Positions 2,691 through 43,789 of a DNA stretch of 64,000 bases are shown here, one piece after another. Positions within the stretch are counted from its first letter, which is position 1. The number at the start of each line of letters is the position of its first letter. Under the pieces are notes generated by a model. That model was given only the letters and a program-made list of their open reading frames with translations, was not told the origin of the DNA and searched no databases. The translations under genes and the position numbers were made by a program. Origin of the DNA: an uncultured Syntrophaceae bacterium (GTDB lineage Bacteria > Desulfobacterota > SM23-61); the NCBI GenBank assembly GCA_964484485.1, contig CAZAGD010000033.1, positions 1,238 through 65,237 of the forward strand. Reading direction: 5' to 3'.

Positions 2691-2691
2691 A

Positions 2692-24562: not shown

Positions 24563-24641
24563 ACGATGAATGGATTTAACTTAAAAAGCTTTTCATTATT
24601 CTCTGCGTTCGCAGGTAGCGACCTCTGCGGTAAAAAAATTT

Positions 24642-24944: not shown

Positions 24945-24953
24945 ATTCCCCTC

Positions 24954-25277
24954 CTATAAAGCAGTCAGAGAGCCTAAGAAAAAGATTACTCCCAAGACGA
25001 TCATCACCCAAAAGAGTTTCTTATGGTAGAGCGCACCCTGCCCAAAATCAATGATTAATACGCGCACCCCATTTAGGGTATGATAGATCAAAAAGGCCAT
25101 GAGTAGCGCGACCATAACCTTATGGGTAAGAAAATCGCTTAGCGCTGCCAAACCTTTCTGATCATATTTCATCCCGAATTGAGCCAATATATGGAGCAGC
25201 AGATAAATTCCTAAAGCTGCGCCAGTGATCCTATGGATCAACCAAGCTATTGCTCCTGTTTGCCAACGATAACGCAT
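24954..25277 (-). CDS. succinate dehydrogenase cytochrome b subunit (SdhC-like)
   Basis: 107 aa, 3 TM with conserved His. Confidence 0.6.
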   Translation of the reverse strand: MRYRWQTGAIAWLIHRITGAALGIYLLLHILAQFGMKYDQKGLAALSDFLTHKVMVALLMAFLIYHTLNGVRVLIIDFGQGALYHKKLFWVMIVLGVIFFLGSLTAL

Positions 25278-25364
25278 ATTCTTCTCCTTTTTTCCAAAAG
25301 AGGACGCCGATTGACCCGCTATCTTTTTCTTCCGGAAAGTCTGAGTTAATCTGCGTCCAAATTT

Positions 25365-25919
25365 CTACCGGGCATATTGGGCCATGCCCTGCTGGTACAA
25401 GTCATTTCCATAAATATCATTGACGACAATTACGGGAAAATTTTCCACCTCCAGCCGGCTTATGGCTTCCGGACCAAGATCCTCGTAAGCTACCACCTCA
25501 GCTTTCTTTATGGCCTTGGCTAAAAGGGCGCCTGCTCCACCCGTGGCCGCGAAATAAACTGCTTTATATTTTTTCATGGCTTCCACTACCTCTTTTTTGC
25601 GCATGCCTTTGCCGATCATGCCTTTTAAGCCTACTTCCATAAGCTTAGGAGAATAGGCGTCCATACGGCCACTAGTAGTAGGACCGGCAGAGCCAATAAC
25701 TTGCCCCGGCTTAGCGGGCGCTGGTCCCACGTAATAGATCACTTGTCCTTTGAGATCTATGGGCAAAGGCTTCCCTTCCTGGAGTAAGTCAAAAAGGCGT
25801 TTGTGGGCCGCATCCCGGCCTGTATAAATAACGCCGCTTAAAAGGACTTTATCACCTGCTTTTAATTTTTCCACATCCGCATCTGTAAGAGGAGTTTTTA
25901 AACGAATTGGGCCACTCAT
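25365..25919 (-). CDS. class I fumarate hydratase, beta (C-terminal domain) subunit
   Basis: Fe-S hydro-lyase beta domain motifs (LSGVIYTGRDAAHKR; AVYFAATGGAGAL). Confidence 0.85.
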   Translation of the reverse strand: MSGPIRLKTPLTDADVEKLKAGDKVLLSGVIYTGRDAAHKRLFDLLQEGKPLPIDLKGQVIYYVGPAPAKPGQVIGSAGPTTSGRMDAYSPKLMEVGLKGMIGKGMRKKEVVEAMKKYKAVYFAATGGAGALLAKAIKKAEVVAYEDLGPEAISRLEVENFPVIVVNDIYGNDLYQQGMAQYAR

Positions 25920-25934
25920 TTTTCATCTCCTTCC

Positions 25935-26798
25935 TTAAATAATTGCTTCCTTATGCCGATGAGCATGGCAATTAAGGTTAATGGCTAAAGGAAAGCTGGC
26001 AATATGGCAAGGGATCATCTCAGCATGGACAGCTAAAGCAGTTATCCGGCCTCCTAACCCCTGGGGGCCGATCCCCAAATTATTTATGCGGGCCAATAGA
26101 TCTTCTTCCAGGGCGGCCAGTTCTGGATCTGGATTCTTCTGCCCTAAGGGGCGTAAAAGAGCTTTTTTAGCAATCAAAGCGGCCTGCTCATAAGTTCCGC
26201 CAATACCAACGCCCACTACTACTGGTGGACAAGGATTGGAACCAGCCTGTTTTACCCACTCCACAACTCTTTTTTTCAACCCTTCTTTTCCTTCAGAAGG
26301 ACTTAACATCATCACCGTAGACATGTTTTCACTCCCCCCACCTTTGGGGGCAACCGTGATCTTGATTTTATCACCCGGGACCATTTCCAGATGAATAATA
26401 GCCGGGGTATTATCTTTCGTATTTACCCGGGAAAAACAATGGCAGGCTGATTTTCTTAGATATCCTTCTTTATACCCCTGGCGGACACCTTCATTAATGG
26501 CCGCATTAAAATCTCCGCCCGTAATATGCACATCCTGTCCCAACTCCACAAAAACAACGGCCAAACCGGTATCCTGGCAGATGGCCACTTGTTCTTCGCG
26601 AGCTATACGGGCATTCTCTTTAAGCTGCTGAAAAACCTCGCGGCCCACAGGCGACTCCTCCATTTTTTCAAATTTATCAAAAGCAGCCAGCACATCCTCT
26701 CCTAAATAAAGATTAGATTCAATACATAGATTTTTGACGACTTCTGTTATCTGACTAGCGTAAACTTCTCTCATCTTCAACCTCCTTACGGCAAGCAT
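25935..26798 (-). CDS. class I fumarate hydratase, alpha (catalytic N-terminal domain) subunit
   Basis: Fe-S hydro-lyase alpha domain (CQDTGLAVVFVELG; Cys ligands). Confidence 0.85.
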   Translation of the reverse strand: MLAVRRLKMREVYASQITEVVKNLCIESNLYLGEDVLAAFDKFEKMEESPVGREVFQQLKENARIAREEQVAICQDTGLAVVFVELGQDVHITGGDFNAAINEGVRQGYKEGYLRKSACHCFSRVNTKDNTPAIIHLEMVPGDKIKITVAPKGGGSENMSTVMMLSPSEGKEGLKKRVVEWVKQAGSNPCPPVVVGVGIGGTYEQAALIAKKALLRPLGQKNPDPELAALEEDLLARINNLGIGPQGLGGRITALAVHAEMIPCHIASFPLAINLNCHAHRHKEAII

Positions 26799-26886
26799 GA
26801 AGGAGGGACCAAATAATTATCTTCGTCCCTCCTTATTTTATTCTGGTAAATCTTTTTCCTCCTTTACCCCGAGGAAAAATTTCTGC

Positions 26887-28224
26887 TTATTTTTCCGTGT
26901 AAGCAGGGATTATTCCTTTTTCCATTAAAACCTGCGTTTCCATTCTGGCTCTGCGGATCGTTTCTGAGGCTTTTTGGAAAAGTTCTTCTTTACTCAATTT
27001 GATGCGGGCCACTCCCTGCTCAATGGCTTTCAAAGCTGTGGCCACGGCCTGCCTGGGGAATACTTCCCATTCCTCCATGGTGGGCAGGATATAGTCTTCT
27101 CTAAGGCCTTTATCTTCCGCACACTTAGCTAATTCGAGAGCGGAGGCAATGCACATTTCATCGGTAATCGTCCGGGCCATAACATCAAGAGTGCCGCGGA
27201 AAATGGCGGGGAAACAGAGACTATTGTTAACCTGGTTGGGAAAATCAGAACGCCCCGTAGCCACAATTTTAGCTCCACCTTCTTTGGCCTCCCAGGGATA
27301 TATTTCCGGGATGGGATTGGCGCAGGCGAAAACGATAGGATCTTTGGCCATTTTCTTTATCCACTCTTTTTTAATCACATCAGGTCCAGGTTTGGCCAAG
27401 GCAATAACTGCATCTGCTCCTTCCATTGCTTCCGCTATCCCACCCTGCCTTTGTTCGGCATTAGTAATCTGGCAGAAGTGCCATTTTTCTTTAAATTCTT
27501 TCTGCGTATCAGTCCGTCCTTTGTGCAAAGTACCTTTTGAATCGACCATAATTATTTTTCCCGGATCAGCCCCGGCCGCAATAAGAATCCGAGCGGTAGC
27601 GATATTAGCCGCACCGGCGCCGATCAAAGTTAAGCGGGCTTTATCTAATTTCTTGCCCACCACTTTTAAGGCATTCACCAAACCCGCTAAAGTTACCGCG
27701 GCTGTCCCCTGCTGGTCATCATGCCAAACGGGAATTTTGGCCTCTTTCCGCAGCGTATCCAAGATGTAGAAACATTTGGGTTGGGATAAATCTTCCAGGT
27801 TGATCCCCCCAAAACAAGGAGAGATTATTTTTACTGTTTTAATAATCTCATCAGGGTCTTTAGTATCCAAAGTAATCGGCCAGGCATCGACCCCACCCAG
27901 ATACTTGAAAAGAATGGCTTTACCCTCCATAACCGGGATAGCCGCCTCAGGACCAATATCTCCCAATCCTAAAACCCGAGTGCCATCGGAAACTACAGCG
28001 ATCATGTTGGCCTTATTAGTATGCTCAAAAACTTTCTCGGGATGAGCTTCAATATCCCGGCAGGCCGCGGCCACGCCCGGAGTATACCAAATGGCAAAAT
28101 CGTCAAATGTACGCACCGGGCATTTGAGAGTAGAAGAAATCTTCCCTTTGTAAAAGGGGTGCATCTTTAAAGCATCCGCCGAAGGCTTTTTGGATCTTGC
28201 TAATAATTCTTCTTTAGTTAACAT
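26887..28224 (-). CDS. NAD(P)-dependent malic enzyme (oxaloacetate-decarboxylating malate dehydrogenase)
   Basis: Short-type malic enzyme; Rossmann GAGAANIATARIL; divalent-cation site. Confidence 0.85.
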   Translation of the reverse strand: MLTKEELLARSKKPSADALKMHPFYKGKISSTLKCPVRTFDDFAIWYTPGVAAACRDIEAHPEKVFEHTNKANMIAVVSDGTRVLGLGDIGPEAAIPVMEGKAILFKYLGGVDAWPITLDTKDPDEIIKTVKIISPCFGGINLEDLSQPKCFYILDTLRKEAKIPVWHDDQQGTAAVTLAGLVNALKVVGKKLDKARLTLIGAGAANIATARILIAAGADPGKIIMVDSKGTLHKGRTDTQKEFKEKWHFCQITNAEQRQGGIAEAMEGADAVIALAKPGPDVIKKEWIKKMAKDPIVFACANPIPEIYPWEAKEGGAKIVATGRSDFPNQVNNSLCFPAIFRGTLDVMARTITDEMCIASALELAKCAEDKGLREDYILPTMEEWEVFPRQAVATALKAIEQGVARIKLSKEELFQKASETIRRARMETQVLMEKGIIPAYTEK

Positions 28225-28302
28225 GTCTTCCTCCTTTTTTTCTGCGCCGTTTTAAATTTTCCTTATTTTTACCTCTTTCTTCCAATAAAGCAAAGACAAA
28301 TT

Positions 28303-29979
28303 TTAAAGTTTAGTTATTGGTTCATATTCCCCGAACACCTCCCGTAAAACATCGCATATTTCCCCCAAGGTGCAGTAAGCCCGCACACAGTCCAAGATAG
28401 GATACATCAAATTGCCATCACCTTGGGCCACTTGGCGTAATTCCTTTAAAGAACTCTTTACTTTTTCGCCATCTCTTTCTCGCCTTAATTCGGCCAATCT
28501 TCTGACCTGTACTTCCCTTACCCGGGGGTCAACCTTCAATAATCCTTTTGGCGGGGGCTCTTTGGTCTGAAACCTGTTTACCCCCACAATAACCCTTTCT
28601 CCACGCTCGATCTCCTTCTGATACCTGTAAGCGCTCTCCTGAATTTCCTGCTGGATATAACCTTTTTCAATCGCCGCTACTGCTCCGCCCAGTTGGTCAA
28701 TCTTGGCTAGGTAAGCGCTGGCCCTTTTCTCTATCTCCTCGGTGAGTTTCTCGATATAAAAAGAACCTCCCAAAGGATCTATGGTTTCGGCCACTCCTGA
28801 TTCATAGGCAATTAATTGCTGGGTGCGCAAGGCGATCTGGACCGATTGCTCTGAAGGTAAAGCCAAAGCCTCATCCATGGAGTTGGTGTGCAAAGACTGG
28901 GTTCCGCCTAAGACGGCAGCCAAAGCCTGCCAAGCAACCCGAATTATATTATTGAAAGGCTGCTGGGCGGTTAGTGTACACCCCGCGGTTTGGGTATGAA
29001 AGCGGAGCATTAAGGAGCGCGGATTGCGAGCATGAAACCTTTCTTTCATGATCTTGGCCCAGAGCCTGCGGGCCGCGCGGAATTTGGCTATTTCTTCTAA
29101 GAAATCAAGGTGAGCGTTGAAGAAAAAGGAAATCCGCGGGCCAAAAACATCCACGTCTAAACCGGCTTTCTGCGCGGCTTCCACATAAGCTATGCCATTG
29201 GCTAAAGTAAAGGCTACTTCCTGCACCGCGGTACACCCGGCCTCCCGCATATGATAGCCACTAATACTAATCGTATTCCAATTGGGGACTTTTTGGGCAC
29301 AATATTCAAAGGTATTCGTAATGATCCGCATGGAATGCTGAGGTGGAAAGATGTAAGTTCCCCGCGAGGAATATTCTTTTAAAATATCATTCTGGATGGT
29401 GCCGTTAAGCTGGTCGGGAGAAACCCCTTGTTTTTCAGCAACCACAATATACATAGCTAAAAGGATGGCTGCTGGAGCGTTGATGGTCATGGAGGTAGAA
29501 ACTTTTTCTAAGGGAATTTGGTCGAAGAGAATCTCCATATCCCGCACGGAATCAATGGCTACGCCCACTTTACCCACTTCTCCTTGGGCTAAAGGATGAT
29601 CCGAGTCATAACCAATTTGCGTCGGCAAATCAAAAGCCACGGAAAGACCTGTTTGCCCTTGATCTAAAAGATAGCGATAGCGTTTGTTCGTATCTTCAGC
29701 GGTGCCGAAGCCGGCGTACTGCCGCATGGTCCAGAAACGACCTCGATACATGGTGGGCTGCACGCCGCGGGTATATGGATATTCTCCAGGTAAGTTTAGA
29801 TTAGCTAGGTAATCCAATTCGGCAATATCCGCGGGGGTATAGATCCTTTGGATAGGTATGCCGGAAGTGGTCTGAAACTCCTTCTTTCTTTCTGGGTTTT
29901 TCACCAAAGACTTCTCCACCGTCTCCGTCCATTTTTTAACATTTTCTTCAATTTCGGCTATTTTTTTGGGGTCGAACAT
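28303..29979 (-). CDS. methylmalonyl-CoA mutase large-subunit catalytic (substrate-binding TIM barrel) domain protein; no B12-binding domain in this ORF
   Basis: Acyl-CoA mutase family N-terminal barrel motifs ([20 protein letters not shown]; [23 protein letters not shown]); 558 aa ends before cobalamin-binding domain. Confidence 0.85.
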
Positions 29980-30008: not shown

Positions 30009-31892
30009 TTAAAGTTTACTGCTCATCTTGGGCTTGCTTTTATCTTGGCTTTTCTTTTTAATCAATATTTCTTCTTCTTTTTCGGCCTTGGCTAAATCTT
30101 CGAACTTAATATCTAAGCCACAAACGCCAACAATTTGCCCAATTTTATCTCTAATAGGGGCCGAGACGGTTAAACATAAACGCCCAGTTATCTTCGAAGT
30201 ATACAGTTCACTCACGTGCACCTGTCCATCTTTTAAAGGTTCGATAAACCAGGAACGGTCAGAGTAGTCTTCATGTAAACCGACTATTTCATATTTCGCC
30301 TTATCCACCACTTGGGTAATATTCTTGGTGATCTTCCGTCCTTCTAAATCGGTAACGTAAGCGAATTGAATAAAGGGGTGGTCGGCCACTAATTTCAGCA
30401 AAAGGGGCTCAATTAGCTTCGGTTTCATAGACTTTAAAGGAGCAGCTTCAATAATTTCTTCTATAAGATGAGCAGCCATTTTATGGGCGCGGGTCTTGAT
30501 GCGGTCAAAATCCGAGACGAAAAACTCGGGCAGATGTTTTCGGGCTTGCCGTTCCATCTCGGTATGCGAAATACTGGTGACCCTGCCTTCGTTATACTGG
30601 TCCATCACCCATTTATAAATTTTAGCTATCCCGGGATGTCGTTTGTCTACCCTCTTTTCCGGTGGTAGCTTTAAGTGGGTGTTCACCCAATGGGCAATCC
30701 CTGCCAGGCCTGATTTGTCAGTAATGATAATGGACATTGGTCGTTTGAGAATCTTGGCGGTATTGAAGATATTATATATTTCCGCCGACTTGGCTAAAGC
30801 ATCTATATGGATGCCCGCCCCCGTAGTATTAAAATCCAGTCCTACCAAGGGATAATTGATGGGAATATGCACCCCCATCTCTCTTTCCGCGTATTGCGCG
30901 ATGTCGGTAATCACGGTAGTATCGATACCGTTTGTTTCTCCGCGCAAGGCAATGTACTCAATGATCAAGGCCTCCAAGGGCGTATTCCCCGTTCTTTCTC
31001 CCAACCCCAAGATGGCTCCATTAGCTGCTGCGCAACCATATAGCCAAGCCGTGGTGGCATTTATAAGCACTTTATGGAAGTCGTTATGCCCATGCCATTC
31101 TAAAAGTTCTCCGGGCACTCCTGCCTCATCAATCATGGTACGTACTAATTTGTCTACAGCGCGGGGCAAAGCTGCGCCCGGATAAGTAACTCCATAGCCC
31201 AAGGTATCGCAAAGGCGGATTTTGACCGGCATTCCACTTTTTTCCCGGAGCCTCATCAAGGCTTGGGCAAAAGGGACGCAGAACCCAAAGATGTCGGCCC
31301 GGGTTACATCTTCGAAATGACATCGCGGAATAATACCTGCGTCCAGGGCAGCTTCGACAATGTCCAGATATTCATCAAATACTTGCCTTCTTTTCTTGCC
31401 CAGTTTCAAAAAAATATGGTAATCGGAAACAGAAGTGAGGATACCTGTTTCTTTTAAGCCCATTTCTTTGACTAATTTTAGATCCTTTTTGTTGGCCCGG
31501 ATCCAACCCGTAATTTCTGGGTACGGATAACCTTTCTCTAAACATTTGGTTACCGCTTCTTGGTCGCGCTGGCTGTATAAAAAAAATTCTGTTTGCCTAA
31601 TTACCCCCTGCGGTCCCCCTAACTTGTGCAGCATGTCAAATAAATCTACAATCTGTTTGACGGTGAAAGGAGGTCGGGCTTGTTGCCCATCTCTAAAAGT
31701 AGTATCGGTGATAAAAAATTCTTTTGCCGGACAAAGAGGAATTATTTTGTGATCAAAATCAATCCGGCTTACTTCTTCATAAGGGAAAACTTCCCGTTGC
31801 AAATTTGGTTCGGCCACATCTTGTAAATCTAAGCGCCAAAATTTAGTATGTTCGTGGGTCAGCAACCGGCGTTCTTCATCCCACTTGGCCAT
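30009..31892 (-). CDS. DRE-TIM/HMGL-like 2-oxoacid:acyl-CoA condensing enzyme of long-form LeuA type (isopropylmalate/citramalate/homocitrate/Re-citrate synthase family) with C-terminal Cache/PAS-like domain
   Basis: DTTFRDGQQ, HFEDVTRAD, LCDTLGYG, HGHNDF...LGLGERTGNTPLE motifs; N-terminal PYEEV segment like long-form LeuA. C-terminal ~200 aa FAYVTDLEGRKI...DRSWFIEPLKDGQVHVSELYTSKITGRLCLTVSAPIRDKIGQIVGVCGLDIKFEDL matches Cache/PDC sensor pattern, not the LeuA dimer regulatory domain. Confidence 0.6.
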   Translation of the reverse strand: MAKWDEERRLLTHEHTKFWRLDLQDVAEPNLQREVFPYEEVSRIDFDHKIIPLCPAKEFFITDTTFRDGQQARPPFTVKQIVDLFDMLHKLGGPQGVIRQTEFFLYSQRDQEAVTKCLEKGYPYPEITGWIRANKKDLKLVKEMGLKETGILTSVSDYHIFLKLGKKRRQVFDEYLDIVEAALDAGIIPRCHFEDVTRADIFGFCVPFAQALMRLREKSGMPVKIRLCDTLGYGVTYPGAALPRAVDKLVRTMIDEAGVPGELLEWHGHNDFHKVLINATTAWLYGCAAANGAILGLGERTGNTPLEALIIEYIALRGETNGIDTTVITDIAQYAEREMGVHIPINYPLVGLDFNTTGAGIHIDALAKSAEIYNIFNTAKILKRPMSIIITDKSGLAGIAHWVNTHLKLPPEKRVDKRHPGIAKIYKWVMDQYNEGRVTSISHTEMERQARKHLPEFFVSDFDRIKTRAHKMAAHLIEEIIEAAPLKSMKPKLIEPLLLKLVADHPFIQFAYVTDLEGRKITKNITQVVDKAKYEIVGLHEDYSDRSWFIEPLKDGQVHVSELYTSKITGRLCLTVSAPIRDKIGQIVGVCGLDIKFEDLAKAEKEEEILIKKKSQDKSKPKMSSKL

Positions 31893-32550
31893 AAATTCCC
31901 CTAACTTTGGCGTTTCTTTTCTTGGAAATTCTGCGGGATAAATTATTTATCTGGCTCTGCACCAGAAAGTCAATTATTTCCTCTTTGCGAAAATACGGCT
32001 TTAAGATCCACCGACGCAAAACTCCGAAAACACCGCTGAAGACTAAGAAATTGGCTTCTAAAAAAGGGTCAAACGCCCCTGGCCCCAACTCACTAATCAA
32101 CCTTTGAAAATGATCAACAATTTCGAATTCTTTCTGCAAAATAACCTTTAAATAATCTTTTTTTACGTAACGCGCTTGCGTATAAGAAAGCATTACTTGA
32201 TCTTCCAATTCCATGGCTGCTTCCACAAAAGCTCGGTAATTAATTTTGAGCCGCGCCAAAGGGTCAGCTACCTGACAAGTCCTCGATCTAACTTTAGCAA
32301 AAAAATTAACCACATAATTTTCGAAAAAAAGATAGAGAATATCATCTTTGGAACTAACATAATCATAGATACTGCCCAAACTGAGACCTGCTTCGCGAGC
32401 TATCTCCCGCACGGTTGCTTTATGGAAGCCCTTCCTTTTGAATACTTGGATAGCTCCCGCAATGATTTGCCGCCTTTTTTCATCCACTAATTTGGCATCT
32501 TTAACTTGGGCTTTGATTAGCATAGGCGCCCTTGGCGAACGAATGTTCAT
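31876..32550 (-). CDS. TetR/AcrR-family transcriptional regulator
   Basis: N-terminal HTH VREIAREAGLSLGSIYDYVSSKDDIL; first gene of the long minus-strand array. Confidence 0.8.
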   Translation of the reverse strand: MNIRSPRAPMLIKAQVKDAKLVDEKRRQIIAGAIQVFKRKGFHKATVREIAREAGLSLGSIYDYVSSKDDILYLFFENYVVNFFAKVRSRTCQVADPLARLKINYRAFVEAAMELEDQVMLSYTQARYVKKDYLKVILQKEFEIVDHFQRLISELGPGAFDPFLEANFLVFSGVFGVLRRWILKPYFRKEEIIDFLVQSQINNLSRRISKKRNAKVRGIYGQVG

Positions 32551-32713: not shown

Positions 32714-32792
32714 TTTCCTGATGGTGAGAAACATTAAAACGGTTAGAAGGTAAGCCAGCTCTAAAGGCTTTGACAAATTCCCCCCTTGATGA

Positions 32793-33845
<1,053 letters not shown>

Positions 33846-33946: not shown

Positions 33947-36900
33947 ATGACTGTAAACCGCCAGTTGGAAGAAGTGCAGAAAGAATTAAGAGCCCGGGAA
34001 ATTCCCCAAGAAGTCCTTGAATCGGCCGCCCTCCAAAAGAATCTCCAAGAAACATCTGTGGCCCAGCTCCAAATTGATCCCAAATATGAAGTGCTCATAG
34101 AGACGGTAGAAGGTTATCGGGGCATTCAGAAAGCTGCCGAAACCTTGCTCTTTGAGTTGCATCATCCCTTTAAAAATTGGGAAATAATCTTGCGGGAAAT
34201 GCGCTCTTTTGCCTTAAAGTATTTTACCGCCTACAGCCGTCATCCTCGCGGGTCCCAAGCCATATCCGCCATTATTGATGTCTTTTTTGAGGCTATAAGC
34301 CAGGTTAACTCTGATAGCTTACAAATAAAAGCTATCGATTATTTGCTCAATTATTTGGAAAAGATCGTTAATGAGCTAAACGGCCAAAATCATGGCGAAA
34401 TTTGGCCGATATTGCAACTTACTTGTCAGCGTTTGGCTTCCCTTCCTGACCAGCAATTTTTTTATTTGGCTTCCAGCCATATCCCTTTAAAAAAGATCGG
34501 GCAGGCTTTATTGCTTAAACTCCCCGAAAATTCTTTTTTACCGGAATTTAATAATCTTTTCATGCGCAGCCTGAAAATTACCTACGCTTATTGGCTGCAA
34601 GAAGAAGATCCGCTCTGCTGGTTTGATAAAGCGGGATCTGCGCCAGTTCTGGGCGAGCAATTAAAATATCCAGATGTCCTCCATTTAATTTCTCATCAAC
34701 ACTTAAAGTCTCTGGTTCAAGAGTTAGAAAATTTTTCGGGCCAGGAAGAATTTAAAAGTAATGGCTCTCTGCAGCTTCTCCGTCATCTCTTGACCTTCCC
34801 TTCCTACTTAGACATAGTACGGGCTTACAAAGAAATTCCTCACCTTTGGCCTGCTCCGCAAACGGCGGAAAAAGAAATTCCTCTTTTAGAGAATAAAAAA
34901 ATATTAGCCCTCTTTAAAATAATGGAAATTCCCGGGCTAAAAGATATTCACGAAGAAACTTTAAGGGAAATTAATCATACGCTCGTGGAACTCATCCGCC
35001 AAGAACCGCCGGAACGGATGCGCGAATTTCTAATTAAGACTTTTTCCCTCCTCAAGTCCAGTATGGAAAATTACCCCCATACGGCCTTGCAGTGCATCCA
35101 AACCTTAGGCGCAGAAATTTTTAATCAAGGTTATAGCCCTTTGGTGGAAGTCTTCTTAGAGTTAGTCTTACATTTCGGTTTTCAATACCCTAATGTGCAG
35201 GGGGTGGACACAAATTGGCAGTTAATCTGCAATCCCTGCCATTTGCTCAATGTGCGGGTCTGGTTGGATATTATTGGCCGAAATCCGAAATGGTGTAGTA
35301 CGCTCCTTTCGGCCCTCATAATTAACTTAAAATTAGCAGGCATTTGCATAAGGGATACTGATCTTTTTCAAAAAGAAGTAAGCAAACTGCTCAATGCCGA
35401 AATTGAGCCCGTCTACAATTTAATCAAGCAATTAGCGAAATTATTTCCCGTATATTTCAACGAAATTGGGGCGGAAGGAGAATTACGCGAGGCTACCACC
35501 GAGATAGATGAAATTACTTATCGTAAGGATCTCCTCATTCATTTTCTCCGTAAACAAAGTCATGTGGAGAGTAGTAATCTCATCGAGGATTTCGTTAGGG
35601 AAATAATCCGTTTTTGGCGCTTAAGAGATAAAGAGGGGTTAAAGAATTTTCTACCGGCGGAGATTTGGGGAAAGATAGAGATTACCGGCCCTTTCATCGA
35701 TGAAGTTAATTATATCGTTCAAAAGATCTTTGCCGAGAAAAGGCTCCAGAGCGAAAAGGATCTTTTAGGTCTAACCGATCGTGAACTGTCCGCCTTTATG
35801 GCTGCCTTGCCGGATGTGGCGGAGACGGAAAAGAAACGGGTCTCTTTGTTAATCAAGATTTACCGGCTTATTAATCAGAAGTATAACTTAGGCTTTCAGG
35901 AAATTGCCGCCCATTTGCAGGAAGCTTCCCGCTGGGGCTTCGAGGGCTTGGATGCTCTTTTACGGGTTATCGAGCGCAACGACCCCGAAGAATGTCTGGA
36001 ACATATCTTGTCCTATCTGGAAAATTTGAAGAAAATTATTCTTTCCCCCCAAAAATTCGAAGCCCGGGAAGATATCTACCGCAAACGGCATATAGCAGCT
36101 GACATTCCCTCTCTGTATGGTCGCTATCGCGAGCGGAAATTCGATGCCTTAGGTTTAACTTTTCGTTTAGAAAATTTGGCGAATATCTATTTTGAAAGAC
36201 TCATCGACTCTTTAGATCTTTCCTTTATTACTCGGGCTACCTTTTTTAAAATCATCTCCTGTTTGCGTTATCTCATGCGGGCTATCGAATTAGATGGCAT
36301 CTTTTCGCCGCGGCTTAATACCCAGCTTATGCTCTTAGAAAAATCTTTAGAGATAAAGCGCTTCACTTTTATGCAGTACCTGGACATATTCCGCGGCTTC
36401 TCCGAAGGAGTTAAAGATGTCATTTCCGTTTATTATGTGAATGCCCATAAAAATAACTTGGAGCTTTTAATTTGGCAAATGGGTAAAAAGAATATTCTGC
36501 CCAAATATCTGCCCCCTTCCGCTGAAGAAATTGGCCCCCATGAGTTTGTCCATCAAATAGGTGAAAAATTTATTCGCGATCTGATCGCTAATACTTTTGG
36601 CCTGCAGTACTTGGATATTTTCTTGGCGCGAATTCAACAAACGCTGGCCGAGCAGAGAGAAACTTTGAACGAAGCTGACCTCGATTTGCTGATGACTTAT
36701 GACCCCAAAAAAGTATGTTGTTTAATCCACCATCCCAATCGCTTGACTAATGATCTAATTCATTTGGGGAGTAAAGGGTATAACTTAGTGGTCTTAGCTT
36801 CCGAAGGCATCCCCGTACCTCCCGGCTTTATTCTGACTACGGAAGTATTCCGCTGCCTAAGGATAATTGAACGTTATCGGCACGCCCACGACCATTTGGA

Positions 36901-38242
36901 ACGGGAAGTCCGCTTTGGCCTGCAGCAAATTGAAAAAGCCACCGGACGTGAATTCGGTAATCCGCAACGGCCGTTACTCTTGGCCGTGCGCAGCGGGTCC
37001 ACAATATCTATGCCAGGGATGATGGCCACTTTATTAAATGTGGGTATAAATGAGGAGATCGTAGAAGGGTTGATCCGCTTCACGGGGGAAACTTGGTTTG
37101 CTTGGGATAATTATCGGCGTTTTATCCAATCCTGGGGCATGTCTTATGGGATTGAACGGGAAGTTTTTAACGAGATCATGCGCCACTTCAAAGCTAAGTA
37201 CAGAGTAGAAAAGAAGAGACAATTCTCCGGGGAAGAAATGAAAGAAATAGCTCTAGCCTATCGCCGCGCCGTCGAAGAAAGACATATCACTATCTATGAA
37301 GATCCCTGGGCCCAATTACAAGTAGCCATTAAACAAGTCCTTTCTTCTTGGAATTCCATCAAAGCCAGGCAATACCGAGAAATTATGGGTATTTCCGACT
37401 ATTGGGGAACGGCGGTGATTGTGCAAGCGATGGTCTTTGGTAATCTCAGCCTCTCCTCGGGCAGCGGGGTAGTCTTCACGGCCCATCCCTACCGAAAAAT
37501 TAGACGGGTGGCCCTGTGGGGTGATTTTACTCCCGGCAACCAAGGGGAAGATATTGTCGGGGGCTTAGTCTCTACTTATCCCATCTCCAAAGAACAAAAA
37601 GAATTGGAGGGAAGGGAAGAAGACTTGGAGGAAGCCTTCCCTAAAATATATAAGCGTTTATTTGAGATTGCCAAAACATTAGTCTATGAGAAAAAGTGGA
37701 ACCCCCAAGAAGTGGAGTTTACTTTCGAAAGCCCAGAAGAAAATAGTCTATACATTCTGCAGACCCGCGATATGGTCTCAACTAAAAGGGAAAAATTTGA
37801 GGTATTTACACCCTCGCCCTCTCTGCAAGAGAGTTTTTTGAGTAAGGGAATTGGCGTAAGCGGGGGGGCCCTTTCCGGGCGGGTAGTATTTAACTTAGAA
37901 GAGATTCATCATTGGCGCAGGTTGGAGCCAACGACTCCGCTCATTCTTGTTCGATCCGATACAGTGCCGGAAGATATCCAGGAAATTTCCTTAACCAATG
38001 GGTTGCTCACGGCAAAAGGCGGCCAAACTTCTCACGCGGCGATCGTGGCTTTTGAATTGGATAAGACGGCCGTGGTAGGTTGCCGCGGTTTAATAGTTTT
38101 AGAAAATGAAGGAAGACTTTTTATTAATCACGTGGAAATAAAGAGAGGTGACTTCCTCAGCTTAGACGGTAGAAAGGGTTTAGTTTATTTGGGCAAGCAT
38201 GAAATTAAGGCAGAAGAAGATCTCCCCACTTTTTTAGTTTAA
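33947..38242 (+). CDS. 1431-aa multidomain protein: novel ~920-aa N-terminal region fused to PPDK/PEP-synthase-type ATP-grasp nucleotide-binding domain and phospho-histidine swivel domain; lacks the PEP/pyruvate-binding TIM barrel (putative dikinase-like phosphotransferase)
   Basis: Residues ~930-1230 match PPDK_N (GYNLVVLASEGIPVPPGFILTTEVF; LLLAVRSGSTISMPGMMATLLNVGINEE); residues ~1340-1420 match the PEP-utilising mobile domain (GGQTSHAAIVAFELDKTAVVGC); ORF stops right after the swivel domain. Confidence 0.6.
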   Translation: MTVNRQLEEVQKELRAREIPQEVLESAALQKNLQETSVAQLQIDPKYEVLIETVEGYRGIQKAAETLLFELHHPFKNWEIILREMRSFALKYFTAYSRHPRGSQAISAIIDVFFEAISQVNSDSLQIKAIDYLLNYLEKIVNELNGQNHGEIWPILQLTCQRLASLPDQQFFYLASSHIPLKKIGQALLLKLPENSFLPEFNNLFMRSLKITYAYWLQEEDPLCWFDKAGSAPVLGEQLKYPDVLHLISHQHLKSLVQELENFSGQEEFKSNGSLQLLRHLLTFPSYLDIVRAYKEIPHLWPAPQTAEKEIPLLENKKILALFKIMEIPGLKDIHEETLREINHTLVELIRQEPPERMREFLIKTFSLLKSSMENYPHTALQCIQTLGAEIFNQGYSPLVEVFLELVLHFGFQYPNVQGVDTNWQLICNPCHLLNVRVWLDIIGRNPKWCSTLLSALIINLKLAGICIRDTDLFQKEVSKLLNAEIEPVYNLIKQLAKLFPVYFNEIGAEGELREATTEIDEITYRKDLLIHFLRKQSHVESSNLIEDFVREIIRFWRLRDKEGLKNFLPAEIWGKIEITGPFIDEVNYIVQKIFAEKRLQSEKDLLGLTDRELSAFMAALPDVAETEKKRVSLLIKIYRLINQKYNLGFQEIAAHLQEASRWGFEGLDALLRVIERNDPEECLEHILSYLENLKKIILSPQKFEAREDIYRKRHIAADIPSLYGRYRERKFDALGLTFRLENLANIYFERLIDSLDLSFITRATFFKIISCLRYLMRAIELDGIFSPRLNTQLMLLEKSLEIKRFTFMQYLDIFRGFSEGVKDVISVYYVNAHKNNLELLIWQMGKKNILPKYLPPSAEEIGPHEFVHQIGEKFIRDLIANTFGLQYLDIFLARIQQTLAEQRETLNEADLDLLMTYDPKKVCCLIHHPNRLTNDLIHLGSKGYNLVVLASEGIPVPPGFILTTEVFRCLRIIERYRHAHDHLEREVRFGLQQIEKATGREFGNPQRPLLLAVRSGSTISMPGMMATLLNVGINEEIVEGLIRFTGETWFAWDNYRRFIQSWGMSYGIEREVFNEIMRHFKAKYRVEKKRQFSGEEMKEIALAYRRAVEERHITIYEDPWAQLQVAIKQVLSSWNSIKARQYREIMGISDYWGTAVIVQAMVFGNLSLSSGSGVVFTAHPYRKIRRVALWGDFTPGNQGEDIVGGLVSTYPISKEQKELEGREEDLEEAFPKIYKRLFEIAKTLVYEKKWNPQEVEFTFESPEENSLYILQTRDMVSTKREKFEVFTPSPSLQESFLSKGIGVSGGALSGRVVFNLEEIHHWRRLEPTTPLILVRSDTVPEDIQEISLTNGLLTAKGGQTSHAAIVAFELDKTAVVGCRGLIVLENEGRLFINHVEIKRGDFLSLDGRKGLVYLGKHEIKAEEDLPTFLV

Positions 38243-39846: not shown

Positions 39847-42057
39847 TTGGATATGGAACCAGCAAGCCAAAAAATGGGGGCAAAAGGAGCTAATTTGCCA
39901 TTAAATCCTTTTAAGGCGGCGCTAAAAGAAACGACTGATCTCGCCCTCTTCGTGCGCACTTCCAGTGAAACTATTTCCGACTGGAATAGGCAGAGAATTG
40001 TGGATGCTCTCTTAAGAGAGACGAACATTGCCCAAGAGGTGGCCGAAAAAATAAGCCGCGAAGTGGAAGAACAAATCATTTCTTCGAAGATCTCTTTAGT
40101 TACCGCTCCTTTGATTCGCGAACTGGTGGATGCTAAACTAATCGAATATGGCCTGGAAGAAGCACGGAAAAAGCACACCCGTTTGGGAGTCCCGCTTTAT
40201 GATGTTGATCAGCTTATCCTCCATCCCAATCGCGAGAATGCCAACGTTCCCCATGGCCCCGAAGCTACTAATCTTACTTTGGCCGAACGCATAAAAAAAG
40301 AATATGCGCTCCTCAATGTTTTTTCTCAGGAAATTGGCGATGCCCATATGCGGGGAGATATCCACCTCCATGATTTAGGTTTTATTGACCGCCCTTACTG
40401 CTCCGGACAATCTTTAGAATATATTAAAAAATTTGGCCTCAATCTTCCCAACTCTCTTTCTATGGCCAAACCGGCTAAACATCCAGAGGTCTTATTGGCC
40501 CACATGGTTAAGTTTGCGGCCGCTTTGCAAAGTCATTTTGCCGGGGCCATCGGTTGGGATGCAGTCAATCTATTCTTTGCTCCTTATTTAGTAGGGCTCA
40601 GTGATCGGGAGATACATCAATTAGCCCAGATGCTTATTTATGAATTTTCCCAACAGGCCGTGGCCCGGGGAGGCCAAGCCATTTTTACGGACATTAATCT
40701 TTATTGGGAAGTACCTAAACATTTTGAAAAAGTTATGGCCATCGGTCCTGGAGGGGAATTTACGGGAAAAACTTATGCGGAATATGCACCCGAAGCGCAA
40801 AGATTCGTTTGGGCCCTTTTTGATGTTTACCGCGAAGGAGATGCCGTAGGTAGGCCCTTCTTCTTTCCCAAACCTCTGGTGCACATTACGGAAAAATTCT
40901 TCCAGACCCCAGGCCATTTAGACTTCTTAGCCCATATTTGTGAAGTGGCGGCCGAAAAAGGGAATACTTACTTTGTTTTTGACCGGGGGAGCACGGCCAA
41001 GGTTTCCGAATGCTGTCGGTTGAGTTTCAAATTAGAAGAAGCCGACTTAGAAGATGCCCAATATCCTTGGCGGATGCGCTATTGTGCTCTGCAGAATGTT
41101 ACGCTGAACTTACCGCGTCTGGCCTATCAAAGCGGCGGCAGCGATGACCAGCTTTTTAATAAGATTGCCCAAGTTTTTAATATAGCTGTGCAGGCTCATC
41201 TGCAGAAGAAAGCCTTCTTAGAGAGATTATTGGCCTTGGGAGCAGATGGTCCGTTAGCTCTGCTCACCATGAATAAAGATGGCCTCCCTTATTTGCGGCT
41301 GGGGCGAGCCACTTATTTAATCGGCATGGTGGGCCTTAACGAAATGGTGCAAATCCACTTGGGGAAGCAACTCCATGAATCTGACGAAGCCTTGAAATTT
41401 GGGTTGAAGGTAATTGCTTATATGAAACTCTTGGCTGACAAAATGAGTCGGCAATATAATATGCGCTTCGTGTTAGAACAAACACCTGCAGAATCGACGG
41501 CCTACCGTTTTGCTAAGCTTGATCTGCGCGACTTTTCTCCGCGGGCGGGGTATATTGTCAAAGGTGATATTTCGCGGGGCGAAATTTACTATAGCAATTC
41601 TACCTACCTAAATGTCGGCGCCCCCCTGAACCCCATCGAGCGGGTGCGCAAAGAAGGTCTTTTCCACCCCTTGATAGAAGCAGGTGCTCTAACTCACCTT
41701 TGGTTGGGGGAGGCGCGGCCGTCTAAAGATTCCTTGGCCAACTTCATCATTAAAGTTTTCCGCAATTCGCAAAATGACCAAATCGCCTTTTCACCAGAAT
41801 TTACGGCCTGCCCTGATTGCGCCAGAACATCCCGTGGTCTCCAAGCAAAGTGTCCCTACTGCGGTTCGGCAAATGTGGAAGGAATAACGCGGATAACCGG
41901 TTATTTTACCAAGATCTCCAGTTGGAACAAGGGCAAATTAGGAGAATTAAAGGACCGCTTCCGCAATCAAAATTATTTCTTAGAAAAAGATGGGGGAGTA
42001 GCTAAAGATAATCGTCCTTGGTCGTTTCGAGAAGAAACTTCCAGAACCTTCGTCTAA
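39847..42057 (+). CDS. nrdD: anaerobic ribonucleoside-triphosphate reductase (class III RNR)
   Basis: N-terminal ATP-cone (NRQRIVDALLRE), C-terminal Zn ribbon CPDCARTS...CPYCGS and glycyl-radical motif TRITGY. Confidence 0.85.
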   Translation: MDMEPASQKMGAKGANLPLNPFKAALKETTDLALFVRTSSETISDWNRQRIVDALLRETNIAQEVAEKISREVEEQIISSKISLVTAPLIRELVDAKLIEYGLEEARKKHTRLGVPLYDVDQLILHPNRENANVPHGPEATNLTLAERIKKEYALLNVFSQEIGDAHMRGDIHLHDLGFIDRPYCSGQSLEYIKKFGLNLPNSLSMAKPAKHPEVLLAHMVKFAAALQSHFAGAIGWDAVNLFFAPYLVGLSDREIHQLAQMLIYEFSQQAVARGGQAIFTDINLYWEVPKHFEKVMAIGPGGEFTGKTYAEYAPEAQRFVWALFDVYREGDAVGRPFFFPKPLVHITEKFFQTPGHLDFLAHICEVAAEKGNTYFVFDRGSTAKVSECCRLSFKLEEADLEDAQYPWRMRYCALQNVTLNLPRLAYQSGGSDDQLFNKIAQVFNIAVQAHLQKKAFLERLLALGADGPLALLTMNKDGLPYLRLGRATYLIGMVGLNEMVQIHLGKQLHESDEALKFGLKVIAYMKLLADKMSRQYNMRFVLEQTPAESTAYRFAKLDLRDFSPRAGYIVKGDISRGEIYYSNSTYLNVGAPLNPIERVRKEGLFHPLIEAGALTHLWLGEARPSKDSLANFIIKVFRNSQNDQIAFSPEFTACPDCARTSRGLQAKCPYCGSANVEGITRITGYFTKISSWNKGKLGELKDRFRNQNYFLEKDGGVAKDNRPWSFREETSRTFV

Positions 42058-42121
42058 GATGTAAAATGATAACTTATAAACTAAGAGAAAATTTTCATGG
42101 GCCGAAAGGAGGGGAAAAGAA

Positions 42122-42370
42122 ATGACGCTCTTTGTCAAAGAAGGATGCGCTAAGTGTGAATATGTGAAAAAAAGCGTCGATTTGGCTAAGTTAGGAGTCA
42201 AAGTGGAAGTGTTAAGTCCGGACAACCCAGATTCCTTAGCCCATTTGGCCTGGCACGAATTAGTAAAAGTAGCCGAAACCCAAATGCCTATCTTAGTCTT
42301 GGATGACTCTTCTTCTCTTACGGGAGCCATACGCATAAAGAATTATCTCCTTGCGCTGAGTCAAAATTAG
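42122..42370 (+). CDS. glutaredoxin-like small redoxin (CxxC) associated with nrdDG
   Basis: 82 aa, EGCAKCEYVKK CxxC motif, thioredoxin-fold pattern. Confidence 0.55.
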   Translation: MTLFVKEGCAKCEYVKKSVDLAKLGVKVEVLSPDNPDSLAHLAWHELVKVAETQMPILVLDDSSSLTGAIRIKNYLLALSQN

Positions 42371-42407
42371 GAAGAAATTTTTGTCAATTATTTAACTCCA
42401 AGGACAT

Positions 42408-43190
42408 ATGGCATATTCAATCAAAGGGTTTTTAGAAACTTCTTTTTCCGATTGGCCGGGGAAAGTGGCCGCTGTTCTTTTTCTCCCCTATTGTAACTTT
42501 CGTTGTCTTTATTGCCATAATTACGAGCTTATTCTTCATCCGGAAAAATTTCCCGACTTCCCCCTTTTAGAAATCATTAAAAAAATTTCCTTAAACCGCG
42601 ATTGGATTGATGGCGTCTGCCTCACTGGGGGAGAACCAACCATCCATCGCTGGCTCCCCGCGCTCCTCCGTTTTTTAAAAGAAAAATTGGGGCAGGATAT
42701 GCCTATTAAGCTGGACACCAATGGTTCCGCGCCCCAAGTCTTGGAAAAACTTATTCAAGAAAAGTTAGTAGATTATGTGGCCATGGACTTGAAAGCGCCC
42801 TTAATCGTAGAGCGCTACGAAGAGGTGGTGGGTGTGTCTCTGGGTGAAGAGGGCTTAGGCAACATTAAAAAAAGCATAATGACCCTCCTTTCCCAGAAAG
42901 TTGATCATGAATTCCGGACTACTATAGTTCCTGCTCTTCTCCAAGAAAAAGAAATTTATGAAATGGCCCGAACAATTAAGGGCGCGCAACGTTATACTCT
43001 GCAAAATTTTAATCCTCGCCAAACTTTAGCGGAAAATTTGCGAAACTGCAAACCTTTGGATGAACTTACTTTGCAACGGCTGCAGAAGAACGTTACGGAA
43101 ATAATCAGGGCGAATAATTGTCCGGATAAATCCCCAATTAAGCAGGAAGATATCAGTCTAAATAAGTTATTTATCTCTTACGCAAAGTAA
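42408..43190 (+). CDS. nrdG: anaerobic ribonucleotide reductase activating protein (radical SAM)
   Basis: CNFRCLYCHN CxxxCxxC radical-SAM motif; position after nrdD. Confidence 0.8.
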   Translation: MAYSIKGFLETSFSDWPGKVAAVLFLPYCNFRCLYCHNYELILHPEKFPDFPLLEIIKKISLNRDWIDGVCLTGGEPTIHRWLPALLRFLKEKLGQDMPIKLDTNGSAPQVLEKLIQEKLVDYVAMDLKAPLIVERYEEVVGVSLGEEGLGNIKKSIMTLLSQKVDHEFRTTIVPALLQEKEIYEMARTIKGAQRYTLQNFNPRQTLAENLRNCKPLDELTLQRLQKNVTEIIRANNCPDKSPIKQEDISLNKLFISYAK

Positions 43191-43210
43191 TTGGGAAAGG
43201 CAACTTATAT

Positions 43211-43789
43211 ATGAAAGAGGCCATCAGCAGGATAATCCAGGAAAGCGTTGATTTAAAATTGCGCTTTGGGCAAAAATACGGAGAAACGCTGAGCCAAGTA
43301 ATTAAGCTCATCGTGGAAGCTTTTAAAGCTGGTAATAAACTCCTTCTTTTTGGCAATGGAGGGTCGGCTGCGGATGCTCAACACCTGGCCGCCGAGTTTA
43401 TAAATCGTTACCTGATTGAACGTCCCCCTTTACCGGCCATTGCTTTGACTACCGATACTTCAGTACTTACCAGCATTAGCAATGATTATAGTTTTCAAGA
43501 TGTTTTTGTAAAGCAGATCAAAGCTTTGGGAAAAGCTGGAGATGTGGCTATAGGTATTTCCACCAGTGGCGCATCGGTCAATGTGATCAAAGGCATAAAA
43601 TTGGCCAAGGAAATGGGCCTAAAAACGATTGCGTTAGTCGGCGGAGATGGGGGAGAACTGGCCAAGATCGCTGATTTAGCTTTGATCGTGGAGTCGACCA
43701 GCACGCCGCGTATTCAGGAAGTGCATATTACCATCGGCCATATTATCTGCGAAATGGTTGATCTCATGCTTTTCCAAAAACCCCTTTAG
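43211..43789 (+). CDS. gmhA: SIS-domain sedoheptulose-7-phosphate isomerase (GmhA-like)
   Basis: GNGGSAADAQHLAAEF and SIS fold motifs. Confidence 0.75.
   Translation: MKEAISRIIQESVDLKLRFGQKYGETLSQVIKLIVEAFKAGNKLLLFGNGGSAADAQHLAAEFINRYLIERPPLPAIALTTDTSVLTSISNDYSFQDVFVKQIKALGKAGDVAIGISTSGASVNVIKGIKLAKEMGLKTIALVGGDGGELAKIADLALIVESTSTPRIQEVHITIGHIICEMVDLMLFQKPL

Follow-up and report, generated by a model that had tools for sequence, protein, structure and literature searches.

A barrel-less relative of pyruvate, phosphate dikinase with a large helical N-terminal domain, encoded beside glyceraldehyde-3-phosphate dehydrogenase genes in Desulfobacterota

VadK (Rv1127c) of Mycobacterium tuberculosis, which derives from pyruvate, phosphate dikinase (PPDK) and has no phosphoenolpyruvate (PEP)/pyruvate TIM barrel, autophosphorylates on a His with ATP and Mg2+, binds enzymes that belong to the methylcitrate cycle and tunes flux (PMC13400623). 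Rifampin phosphotransferase (RPH) and HpeHI combine an ATP-grasp domain and a swivelling His domain with a non-barrel acceptor domain, and convert ATP to AMP (PMC4844700, PMC12167813). Here we describe a further protein of this general kind, encoded by an open reading frame (ORF) in a 64,000-nucleotide stretch (“the window”) of contig CAZAGD010000033.1 (positions 1,238 to 65,237; GenBank assembly GCA_964484485.1) from an uncultured Syntrophaceae bacterium. The protein, here called X, is encoded between two genes for glyceraldehyde-3-phosphate dehydrogenase (GAPDH), the canonical gap (gap1) and a divergent gap2. Judged by its homologues, X is a member of a large enzyme family found mainly in Desulfobacterota, and it is probably a phospho-histidine (phospho-His) relay enzyme functionally coupled to GAPDH. 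Full-text literature searches returned no publication on the X family; the relevant papers that they did return all deal with its analogues VadK, RPH and HpeHI.

Domain architecture of X

The reading frame of X is unbroken over 1,431 codons (33947..38242, + strand). Its C-terminal part carries the Pfam domain PPDK_N at aa 983-1229 (E 4.6e-32) and the PEP-utilizers mobile domain (PF00391) at aa 1332-1411 (E 4.2e-17), and aa 940-1421 align with PPDK residues 23-515 (5jvn, E 7e-76) at ~30-34% identity, the PPDK E-values reaching 1e-77. Past the central His domain the sequence of X stops, at a position that corresponds to PPDK residue ~515. The motif GGQTSHAAIV (aa 1358-1367) marks H1363 as the predicted phosphoryl carrier. 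Identities to the PPDK of C. symbiosum include K943 (K22), R1015 (R92), E1257 (E323), Q1272 (Q335), R1274 (R337), T1361 (T453) and H1363 (H455), with a conservative replacement of D321 by Glu. We take these eight PPDK residues (K22, R92, D321, E323, Q335, R337, T453 and H455) to be the catalytic positions. In 116 close sequences the seven identical residues of X, H1363 included, do not vary, and distant members retain them as well, with one hemerythrin-fused cluster as the exception for H1363. The original prediction of a PPDK-like ATP-grasp domain and swivelling His domain, with this motif and with an end where the barrel of PPDK would start, is thus borne out by Pfam, by the alignment to PDB sequences and by the catalytic residues.

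All curated NCBIfam cut-offs are missed by X. The scores are 378.3 bits against a cut-off of 843.45 for PPDK (TIGR01828), 316.5 against 456 for the VadK-family model NF004531, and 41.4 against 999 for the RPH model NF041857; the two PEP synthase (PpsA) models, TIGR01418 (73.8 vs. 739.75) and NF005057 (83.4 vs. 598), match only the region of the His domain. Since the match to PPDK reaches an E-value of 1e-77, whereas that to PpsA is confined to the His domain, the predicted catalytic module clearly belongs to the PPDK type and not to that of PpsA or RPH, and chemistry with inorganic phosphate (Pi) and pyrophosphate (PPi) is therefore likelier for X than chemistry with water.

The barrel domain itself (PF02896) was not found by Pfam on X. 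The original prediction had also called for a search for a stand-alone barrel elsewhere; of the 53 window ORFs of at least 150 aa, the 26 that were scanned (the six that flank X and 20 others) gave no match to PF02896. The signature G[ST]ND[LM][TIS]Q, which we take to be diagnostic of the PEP barrel, is missing from all frames of the window and from all those of 170 fetched loci, although this is a weak test. Only 76 bp of intergenic sequence follow X before gap2, which is preceded by a strong ribosome-binding site.

Among 5.8 billion proteins searched, more than 115 are homologues that measure 1,385-1,455 aa and begin and end where X does (98-100% query coverage, 46-98% identity); they come from metagenome-assembled genomes (MAGs) of Thermodesulfobacteriota and from Thermodesulfatator, Dissulfurimicrobium and Thermosulfuriphilus. 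They are labelled only as ‘PEP/pyruvate-binding domain-containing protein’, ‘PPDK’ or ‘PEP synthase’. Public annotation of family members as pyruvate, phosphate dikinase or phosphoenolpyruvate synthase could be read as a sign that X is a frameshifted, truncated or chimeric ppdK or ppsA, an outcome that the original prediction had named as one that would refute it. However, an architecture of 1,335-1,540 aa with an identical C-terminal end recurs in hundreds of independent assemblies and, with the conserved length and ends, the short spacer and the lack of a barrel motif in the frames searched, this refutes the artefact, whose probability we regard as negligible.

An AlphaFold2 model of aa 232-1431, built on an alignment of full-length homologues from the protein search, is confident (predicted local distance difference test score, pLDDT, 86.7; predicted template modelling score, pTM, 0.79). 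When C. symbiosum PPDK (1kbl, 1dik) is superposed on the modelled ATP-grasp and His domains, the fit is 3.2-3.9 Å over ~540 columns (1kbl, 3.2 Å), but with the maize and Flaveria PPDK conformers it is only 10-14 Å, so the model represents the conformer in which the His faces the ATP site. The isolated PPDK carrier domain (2fm4) matches the His domain of X with a target-normalised TM-score of 0.83.

The N-terminal part is of a different nature. Residues 1 to ~935 have no match in Pfam, NCBIfam or the PDB sequences, and a profile search for PDB relatives of the domain gave none at E≤10. The AlphaFold2 model of this region is all-alpha (pLDDT 83.9, pTM 0.74), with a solenoid-like appearance. The modelled N-terminal region would be a new, large, all-alpha domain without a solved relative. 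The original prediction of a mostly helical region, there put at ~920 aa, is borne out by the model; the region falls in no enzyme family known to these databases and extends over ~930 aa.

Conservation within the N-terminal domain peaks at aa 400-550 and 700-750. Across 81 sequences 97 positions are invariant, and 38 of these are Arg, Lys, His, Asp or Glu. The conserved motifs comprise D470-T471-D472 (the near-invariant core of an ‘RDTDLF’ motif), G508-A-E-G511...R514, D521, R526, D528, H532-F-L-R-K-Q-x-H539 and K645-Y646, followed by E708, K713-R-H715...P721...Y724-G...Y727-x-E729, Q810, E873, R877 and D890, and they persist at 28-47% overall identity. The block NEIGAEGxLR ... HFLRKQSH, with E510, R514, D521, R526, D528, H532, R535, K536 and H539, is kept down to 28%. 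The sole beta-hairpin of the domain has a near-invariant tip, KRHIAADIPS (aa 713-722; KRHIAxDIPS in the family), that nevertheless has a pLDDT below 50 in both models, and this tip may be a mobile functional loop. Because so many invariant positions are charged (38 of 97) and persist to 28% identity, the alignment shows the pattern expected of a catalytic or specific binding site, unlike that of a loose scaffold.

Distribution of the family and its association with GAPDH

The N-terminal 930 aa alone were used in an exhaustive search of 1.84 billion cluster representatives, with 604 hits passing E≤1e-3, of which 217 also pass E≤1e-30. The full-length members among them measure 1,335-1,540 aa, extend down to 28% identity and carry PPDK-type names only; one comes from a Myxococcota MAG. 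When one genome per species was scanned, relatives of X were present in at least 568 species genomes, mostly of Desulfobacterota. Cultured carriers include Desulfobulbus elongatus DSM 2908, Desulfocicer vacuolatum DSM 3385, Thermosulfurimonas dismutans S95 and a Desulfurivibrio sp.; a member is also encoded on a complete chromosome of Ca. Electrothrix and in one MAG of the Thermodesulfovibrionales. In one subclade a hemerythrin domain is fused to the N-terminus (L087:6001-10623 = P0292; P0160, P0154); the neighbourhood of the hemerythrin-fused member has a ferritin-like gene upstream and no GAPDH gene nearby.

Gene neighbourhoods were compared at 85 X loci, 75 of which have enough flank for the gene upstream; downstream genes were counted at 63 loci and other neighbours over 90 loci. 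A canonical gap lies upstream of X on the same strand at 54 of 75 loci, within 600 bp at 42 of those 54. Downstream, X is followed by a long gap2 at 12 of 63 loci and by pgk(-tpi) at 10 of 63. The order gap-X-gap2-pgk-tpi-secG occurs in Thermodesulfatator atlanticus and Dissulfurimicrobium. Most telling are distant homologues (28-38% identity in the N-terminal domain), which reside in unrelated neighbourhoods where X is again followed directly by a GAPDH of 381-417 aa (L088, L089, L090) or stands in the order X-gap2-gap1-pgk-tpi (L086), and the GAPDHs beside these distant homologues carry the characteristic insertions of the window gap2. Other neighbours are glgA (34 of 90 loci, usually as glgA-gap-X, an arrangement common in Desulfobulbia and lineage-restricted) and, in a cable bacterium, a phosphoglycerate-mutase-family gene. 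Together with pgk-tpi, these neighbours point to gluconeogenesis and glycogen.

The association also holds in the opposite direction. Metagenome contigs scanned with an alignment of gap2 alone yielded 80 gap2-type loci, of which 61 could be judged. X is adjacent to gap2 at 46 of the 61, upstream on the same strand in 39 and downstream in convergent (tail-to-tail) orientation in 7 (L159, L161-L164, L166, L167). As adjacency survives this change of orientation, it argues for functional coupling rather than an inherited operon order. The remaining 15 loci lack X, and most of them have pgk immediately downstream; a gap2-pgk clade without X within ≤6 kb on either side (L093, L095-L097, L099, L102, L108, L110, L114, L120) has gap2 genes 63-65% identical to that of the window. 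Where 1.5 kb or more of sequence is available downstream, gap2 is followed by pgk at 4 of 37 X-positive but 11 of 13 X-negative loci (Fisher p = 2e-6, uncorrected for phylogeny; the X-negative loci may represent one clade). X and phosphoglycerate kinase (PGK) thus tend to share one slot beside the gap2-type GAPDH, and this alternation fits a PGK-like role of X.

The link to GAPDH in the original prediction therefore extends well beyond the window, as deep synteny that holds both ways. The sandwich of X between two GAPDH genes was described correctly for the window, but the conserved core is a pair, either X with the long gap2 or, in Desulfobulbia, X with the canonical gap.

At ~10 of 90 loci, in Thermodesulfobacteria-type genomes, the cluster rpoN-hpf-ptsN(EIIA-Ntr)-rapZ-EIIA(Man)[-EIIB-EIIC]-GNAT acetyltransferase directly precedes gap/X (e.g., L001:2169-6922, L002:3059-6984, L086:214-5917). 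This may be mere synteny, or a hint that the phospho-His protein is linked to a phosphorelay of the phosphotransferase system (PTS) type.

The two GAPDHs of the window differ in several respects. While gap1 is a type I, NAD-type enzyme with the INDL motif, gap2 scores 337.6 bits on TIGR01534, below the cut-off of 367.2, and appears from its sequence to belong to a divergent GAPDH subfamily that is the conserved partner of X. It has the Gp_dh_N and Gp_dh_C domains, the catalytic Cys (SCTT, present in 80 of 80 metagenomic gap2 sequences) and the catalytic His (TVH), together with an N-terminal extension and four conserved subfamily-specific insertions of ~8-31 aa. By alignment it also keeps S148, T150, T179, R195, T208-G209 and R231, which we take to form the Ps and Pi phosphate sites of GAPDH. 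Since all these catalytic and phosphate-site residues are kept, gap2 should be a phosphorylating GAPDH acting on glyceraldehyde-3-phosphate and 1,3-bisphosphoglycerate (1,3-BPG). The NAD-ribose Asp (Asp32, in the INDL motif) is replaced by an invariant Gly-Arg, a change usual in enzymes that prefer NADP, which suggests that gap2 is NADP-preferring and anabolic, like GapB of B. subtilis.

In the window gap, X and gap2 look like one transcription unit, in that gap has a promoter-like site in front of it and neither the gap/X nor the X/gap2 spacer contains a terminator-like one. This is weak evidence: promoter-like matches in the region are no commoner than in shuffled sequence, and the site before gap is a consensus match only. 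Coordinates of X, its domains and motifs, and the flanking GAPDH genes are given in Table 1.

Table 1. Positions in the window of X, its predicted domains and motifs, and the adjoining GAPDH genes.
Feature	Position	Strand	Basis
X, barrel-less PPDK-derived protein, 1,431 aa	33947..38242	+	ORF, Pfam, NCBIfam, homologue search
N-terminal family-specific domain, aa 1-930, all-alpha, solenoid-like (predicted)	33947..36736	+	profile searches, AlphaFold, fold searches
D470-T471-D472, near-invariant core of ‘RDTDLF’ motif	35354..35362	+	family alignment
Block NEIGAEGxLR ... HFLRKQSH, aa 505-539	35459..35563	+	family alignment
Sole beta-hairpin of N-terminal domain, aa 707-728 (modelled)	36065..36130	+	model, alignment
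PPDK-type nucleotide-binding (ATP-grasp) domain, aa 940-1280	36764..37786	+	Pfam (PF01326), PDB alignment, model
Phospho-His swivel (central) domain, aa 1300-1421	37844..38209	+	Pfam, PDB alignment, 2fm4 match
H1363 codon, predicted phosphoryl-carrier His (T1361-S1362-H1363)	38033..38035	+	motif, alignment
Sigma-70-like promoter match upstream of gap, TTGACA-17-TATTCT with extended TG	32770..32798	+	consensus match
gap (gap1), type I NAD-type (INDL) GAPDH, 334 aa	32841..33845	+	TIGR01534, 434.7 vs. 367.2 bits
gap2, divergent phosphorylating-type GAPDH, 430 aa	38319..39611	+	Pfam, TIGR01534, alignments

Possible roles of X at the GAPDH step

By analogy with PPDK and VadK, X would autophosphorylate H1363 from ATP, and a dikinase acting on a three-carbon phospho-compound is plausible. 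The explanation that we favour, though we hold it at somewhat less than an even chance, is an ATP-driven phospho-His relay placed by its gene context at the GAPDH step, with the conversion of 3-phosphoglycerate (3-PG) to 1,3-BPG as the likeliest reaction. As judged from the conserved residues and from relatives, ATP would bind the C-terminal ATP-grasp domain and H1363 would be phosphorylated with release of AMP, the gamma-phosphate probably going to Pi to give PPi. The His domain would then swivel off the ATP site, as in PPDK, RPH and HpeHI, and pass the phosphoryl group to an acceptor bound on a highly conserved face of the N-terminal domain that is rich in charged residues (the motifs DTD, GAEG and HFLRKQSH, and the KRH hairpin). 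The likeliest acceptor would be the carboxylate of 3-PG, and the resulting 1,3-BPG would be reduced to glyceraldehyde-3-phosphate by the partner gap2, probably with NADPH; the helical domain might hold the GAPDH tetramer and channel the labile 1,3-BPG. Gluconeogenesis would thereby gain a step that needs no PGK, forms AMP and is more strongly driven, and X and GAPDH might carry it out as a complex.

Several considerations are compatible with such a step. A kinase paired with an acyl-phosphate reductase is a standard arrangement, as in PGK/GAPDH and aspartokinase/aspartate-semialdehyde dehydrogenase, and transfer from phospho-His to a carboxylate has a precedent in succinyl-CoA synthetase. Calculated from textbook standard free energies, the reaction 3PG + ATP + Pi → 1,3BPG + AMP + PPi is at ~+4 kJ/mol and the same conversion with water as co-acceptor at ~-15 kJ/mol, compared with ~+19 kJ/mol for PGK, and the step would ease gluconeogenesis in energy-limited anaerobes. 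That X phosphorylates the carboxylate of 3-PG is nonetheless a tentative assignment that we consider doubtful at present, and the full proposal of a new two-enzyme route, in which a ‘3-phosphoglycerate, phosphate dikinase’ works with a dedicated NADPH-type GAPDH on the helical domain to bypass PGK, is rather unlikely to be correct in every part.

A number of observations weigh against the relay to 3-PG. The N-terminal model matches only generic HEAT and designed helical repeats in fold searches, which recovered no recognisable catalytic fold; nothing in the sequence or fold searches points to a small-molecule acceptor bound by this region, and 930 aa is large for binding a three-carbon acid. 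The modelled His domain sits on the ATP site, away from the N-terminal domain. Desulfobulbus-type loci have neither gap nor gap2 within 8 kb of X, while pgk lies in the same operon as X or nearby in L001, L002, L003 and L086; since pgk coexists with X in several genomes, X does not simply replace PGK. Finally, in the 1,540-aa hemerythrin cluster Tyr stands in place of the carrier His (GGATSYAA) and Gly in place of R1015, so that its dikinase engine looks dead. As its N-terminal motifs remain intact, this implies that the N-terminal domain has a function independent of phosphotransfer.

These points bear directly on a regulatory alternative, in which X is a phospho-His kinase or scaffold like VadK, whose solenoid binds GAPDH and perhaps other enzymes of lower glycolysis and controls the direction of flux by phosphorylating or sequestering proteins rather than by making a metabolite. 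VadK, the sole characterised barrel-less PPDK, is itself reported to be a regulatory kinase that binds pathway enzymes (PMC13400623), which also speaks against a metabolic relay, and the C-terminal half of X scores 316 bits on the VadK-family model. The N-terminal fold resembles protein-binding alpha-solenoids, for which the gap2-specific insertions could be docking sites. A hemerythrin sensor domain, as found in one subclade, is typical of signalling proteins, and that subclade lost the catalytic His yet kept the N-terminal motifs. An operon with two GAPDHs of apparently different cofactors would also be a sensible place for a switch between them. On the other hand, solenoid scaffolds rarely keep ~100 invariant positions across 28-50% identity, and the alternation of X and pgk beside gap2 suggests an enzymatic equivalent of PGK, not a regulator. 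The VadK score, moreover, is below its cut-off (316 vs. 456) and lower than the PPDK score (378). We regard a VadK-like role as a serious alternative, although we would not expect it.

Two further readings keep the enzymatic chemistry and change its direction or its acceptor. Run in reverse, the acyl-phosphate of 1,3-BPG would pass to the His of X, and AMP and PPi, the products of sulfate activation, would be converted to ATP and Pi. X would then be a PPi-dependent substitute for PGK that recycles the AMP and PPi of ATP sulfurylase and adenosine 5'-phosphosulfate (APS) reductase, e.g., during glycogen fermentation. Several anaerobes use PPDK to form ATP, the ATP-grasp module of X is PPDK-type, and the Desulfobacterota, in which the family is concentrated, are lineages of the APS pathway. 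The frequency of glgA near X (34 of 90 loci), the NAD-type gap1 as the partner in Desulfobulbia and a calculated standard free energy near zero, which makes either direction feasible, fit as well. However, the ancestral partner gap2 looks NADP-type, suggesting the reductive direction; the loci examined show no synteny with sat, apr or pyrophosphatase genes; and, as for the forward relay, the model shows the His domain on the ATP site and not at an acceptor site. The reverse reaction is improbable to us. More improbable again is an acceptor of another kind (glycogen or another glucan, glycerate or a PTS-type protein), with the link to gap reflecting co-regulation of carbon-storage genes. Barrel-less dikinases do act on rifampin, phenols and starch (PMC4844700, PMC12167813), the order glgA-gap-X is common in Desulfobulbia, and the rpoN-ptsN-rapZ-EIIA(Man) genes lie directly upstream at ~10 of 90 loci. 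Yet both kinds of neighbour are lineage-restricted, whereas GAPDH persists in unrelated contexts and in both orientations. Pfam, in addition, finds neither a carbohydrate-binding module (CBM) nor a PEP-utilizers_N/HPr-binding domain on X, and the domain order differs from that of glucan-water dikinase (GWD). A glycogen dikinase was rejected for these reasons (glgA frequent but lineage-restricted, no CBM), and an ATP-dependent role resembling Enzyme I of the PTS is unlikely, given that the PTS cluster occurs at so few loci and X has no HPr-binding domain.

If the forward relay with gap2 exists, this PGK bypass would make gluconeogenesis thermodynamically easy in energy-limited sulfate reducers, sulfur disproportionators and cable bacteria, and the 930-aa domain would be a new catalytic or channelling fold. 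Lower glycolysis and gluconeogenesis are among the best-mapped areas of metabolism, and a widespread, unrecognised ATP-driven enzyme or regulator at the GAPDH step would be a real addition. After the RPH-type dikinases and VadK, the family is also the third independent instance in which a new partner domain has been combined with the phospho-His engine of PPDK/PpsA. Carriers of X (Desulfobulbus, Desulfocicer, Thermodesulfatator, Thermosulfurimonas, Desulfurivibrio and cable bacteria) have central parts in the cycling of sulfur and carbon under anoxic conditions, and misannotation of the family as PPDK or PEP synthase inflates predictions of pyruvate-to-PEP conversion in metabolic reconstructions. 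The cultured hosts and the two-gene module make the hypothesis directly testable.

Surroundings in the window and comparison with known systems

Just upstream of the gap operon, on the - strand, is a block of the methylmalonyl-CoA (propionate) pathway (22805-29979) with genes for a succinate dehydrogenase/fumarate reductase flavoprotein, a two-subunit fumarase, malic enzyme and methylmalonyl-CoA mutase. It is followed by an unusual enzyme-sensor fusion (30009-31892, - strand; 627 aa) of an HMGL-like domain (homocitrate/isopropylmalate-synthase-type) with a C-terminal Cache/PDC sensor; a TetR regulator gene (31876-32550) adjoins the fusion gene and is divergent from gap. Downstream of gap2 (39847-43789, + strand) are nrdD (anaerobic ribonucleotide reductase with an ATP-cone), a radical S-adenosylmethionine (SAM) activase and a SIS-domain protein, and the order gap2-nrdD-activase-SIS is kept on the contigs of the closest relatives (L005, L006). 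A 960-aa catalytic subunit of a molybdopterin oxidoreductase with an N-terminal Fe4S4 domain is encoded at 51545-54427 (- strand). The first 7,622 positions of the window have a low GC content (0.36-0.39 vs. ~0.45 elsewhere) and end at a tRNA-Arg(ACG) gene (7546-7622, - strand), directly adjoined by a phage-type integrase (6475-7539). The gene for a ThaI-family restriction endonuclease (2058-2690) overlaps one for an N4/N6 DNA methylase (2641-3636) here, and a DUF3987/winged helix-turn-helix protein (361-1527) is also encoded. The region has the look of a mobile element that has integrated and carries a restriction-modification system.

Among known systems, PPDK (EC 2.7.9.1; TIGR01828; 1dik, 1kbl, 1vbg, 5jvn) shares with X the ATP-grasp domain, the linker, the swivelling His domain with its TSH motif and the catalytic residues. 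X differs in having no PEP/pyruvate TIM barrel, in carrying an unrelated all-alpha domain of 930 aa at the opposite, N-terminal end, and in its genomic partner, which is GAPDH and not the genes of the PEP/pyruvate node. PEP synthase combines a PpsA-type ATP-grasp domain with the barrel; X has neither and scores far below the respective cut-offs. VadK, like X, is PPDK-derived and barrel-less and has retained both the ATP-grasp domain and the catalytic His, but at ~490 aa (~490-534 aa in its family) it has no additional domain, and its setting is Actinomycetes and the methylcitrate cycle, whereas that of X is Desulfobacterota and, by gene context, the GAPDH step.

RPH and the two-component dikinases of phenol/hydroxyphenylethanone type, HpeHI and phenylphosphate synthase, follow the same logic of an ATP-grasp domain, a swivelling His domain and a non-barrel domain. 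However, RPH has the order ATP-grasp domain, acceptor domain, His domain, while in X the N-terminal domain precedes the ATP-grasp and His domains and the ATP-grasp domain is PPDK-type, not PpsA/RPH-type. The five best RPH matches to the model of aa 232-1431 cover ~440-465 columns with TM-scores of 0.14-0.22 (Foldseek), and RPH is not among the matches listed for the N-terminal model alone in two fold searches. GWD and PWD have N-terminal CBMs and place the His domain before a C-terminal nucleotide-binding domain; in X this order is reversed, and aa 1-935 contain no CBM.

PGK is a functional analogue only. It is encoded directly beside the gap2-type GAPDH where X is absent, and would act on the same metabolites if the 3-PG hypothesis is right, but the two are not homologous, and PGK forms ADP and has no phospho-enzyme intermediate. 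The anabolic NADP-type GAPDHs (GapB of B. subtilis and chloroplast GapA/B) resemble gap2 in their type I fold, in the retained catalytic and phosphate-site residues and in the loss of the NAD-specifying Asp, while gap2, whose cofactor preference is predicted, constitutes a separate subfamily marked by its N-terminal extension and by four conserved insertions.

With no barrel, all curated cut-offs missed, and a different domain order and acceptor domain, X is placed by its defining features outside PPDK, PpsA, VadK, RPH and GWD. What is known in X is the phospho-transfer engine; what is new is the N-terminal domain, together with a conserved gene module that pairs X with a distinct subfamily of GAPDH.

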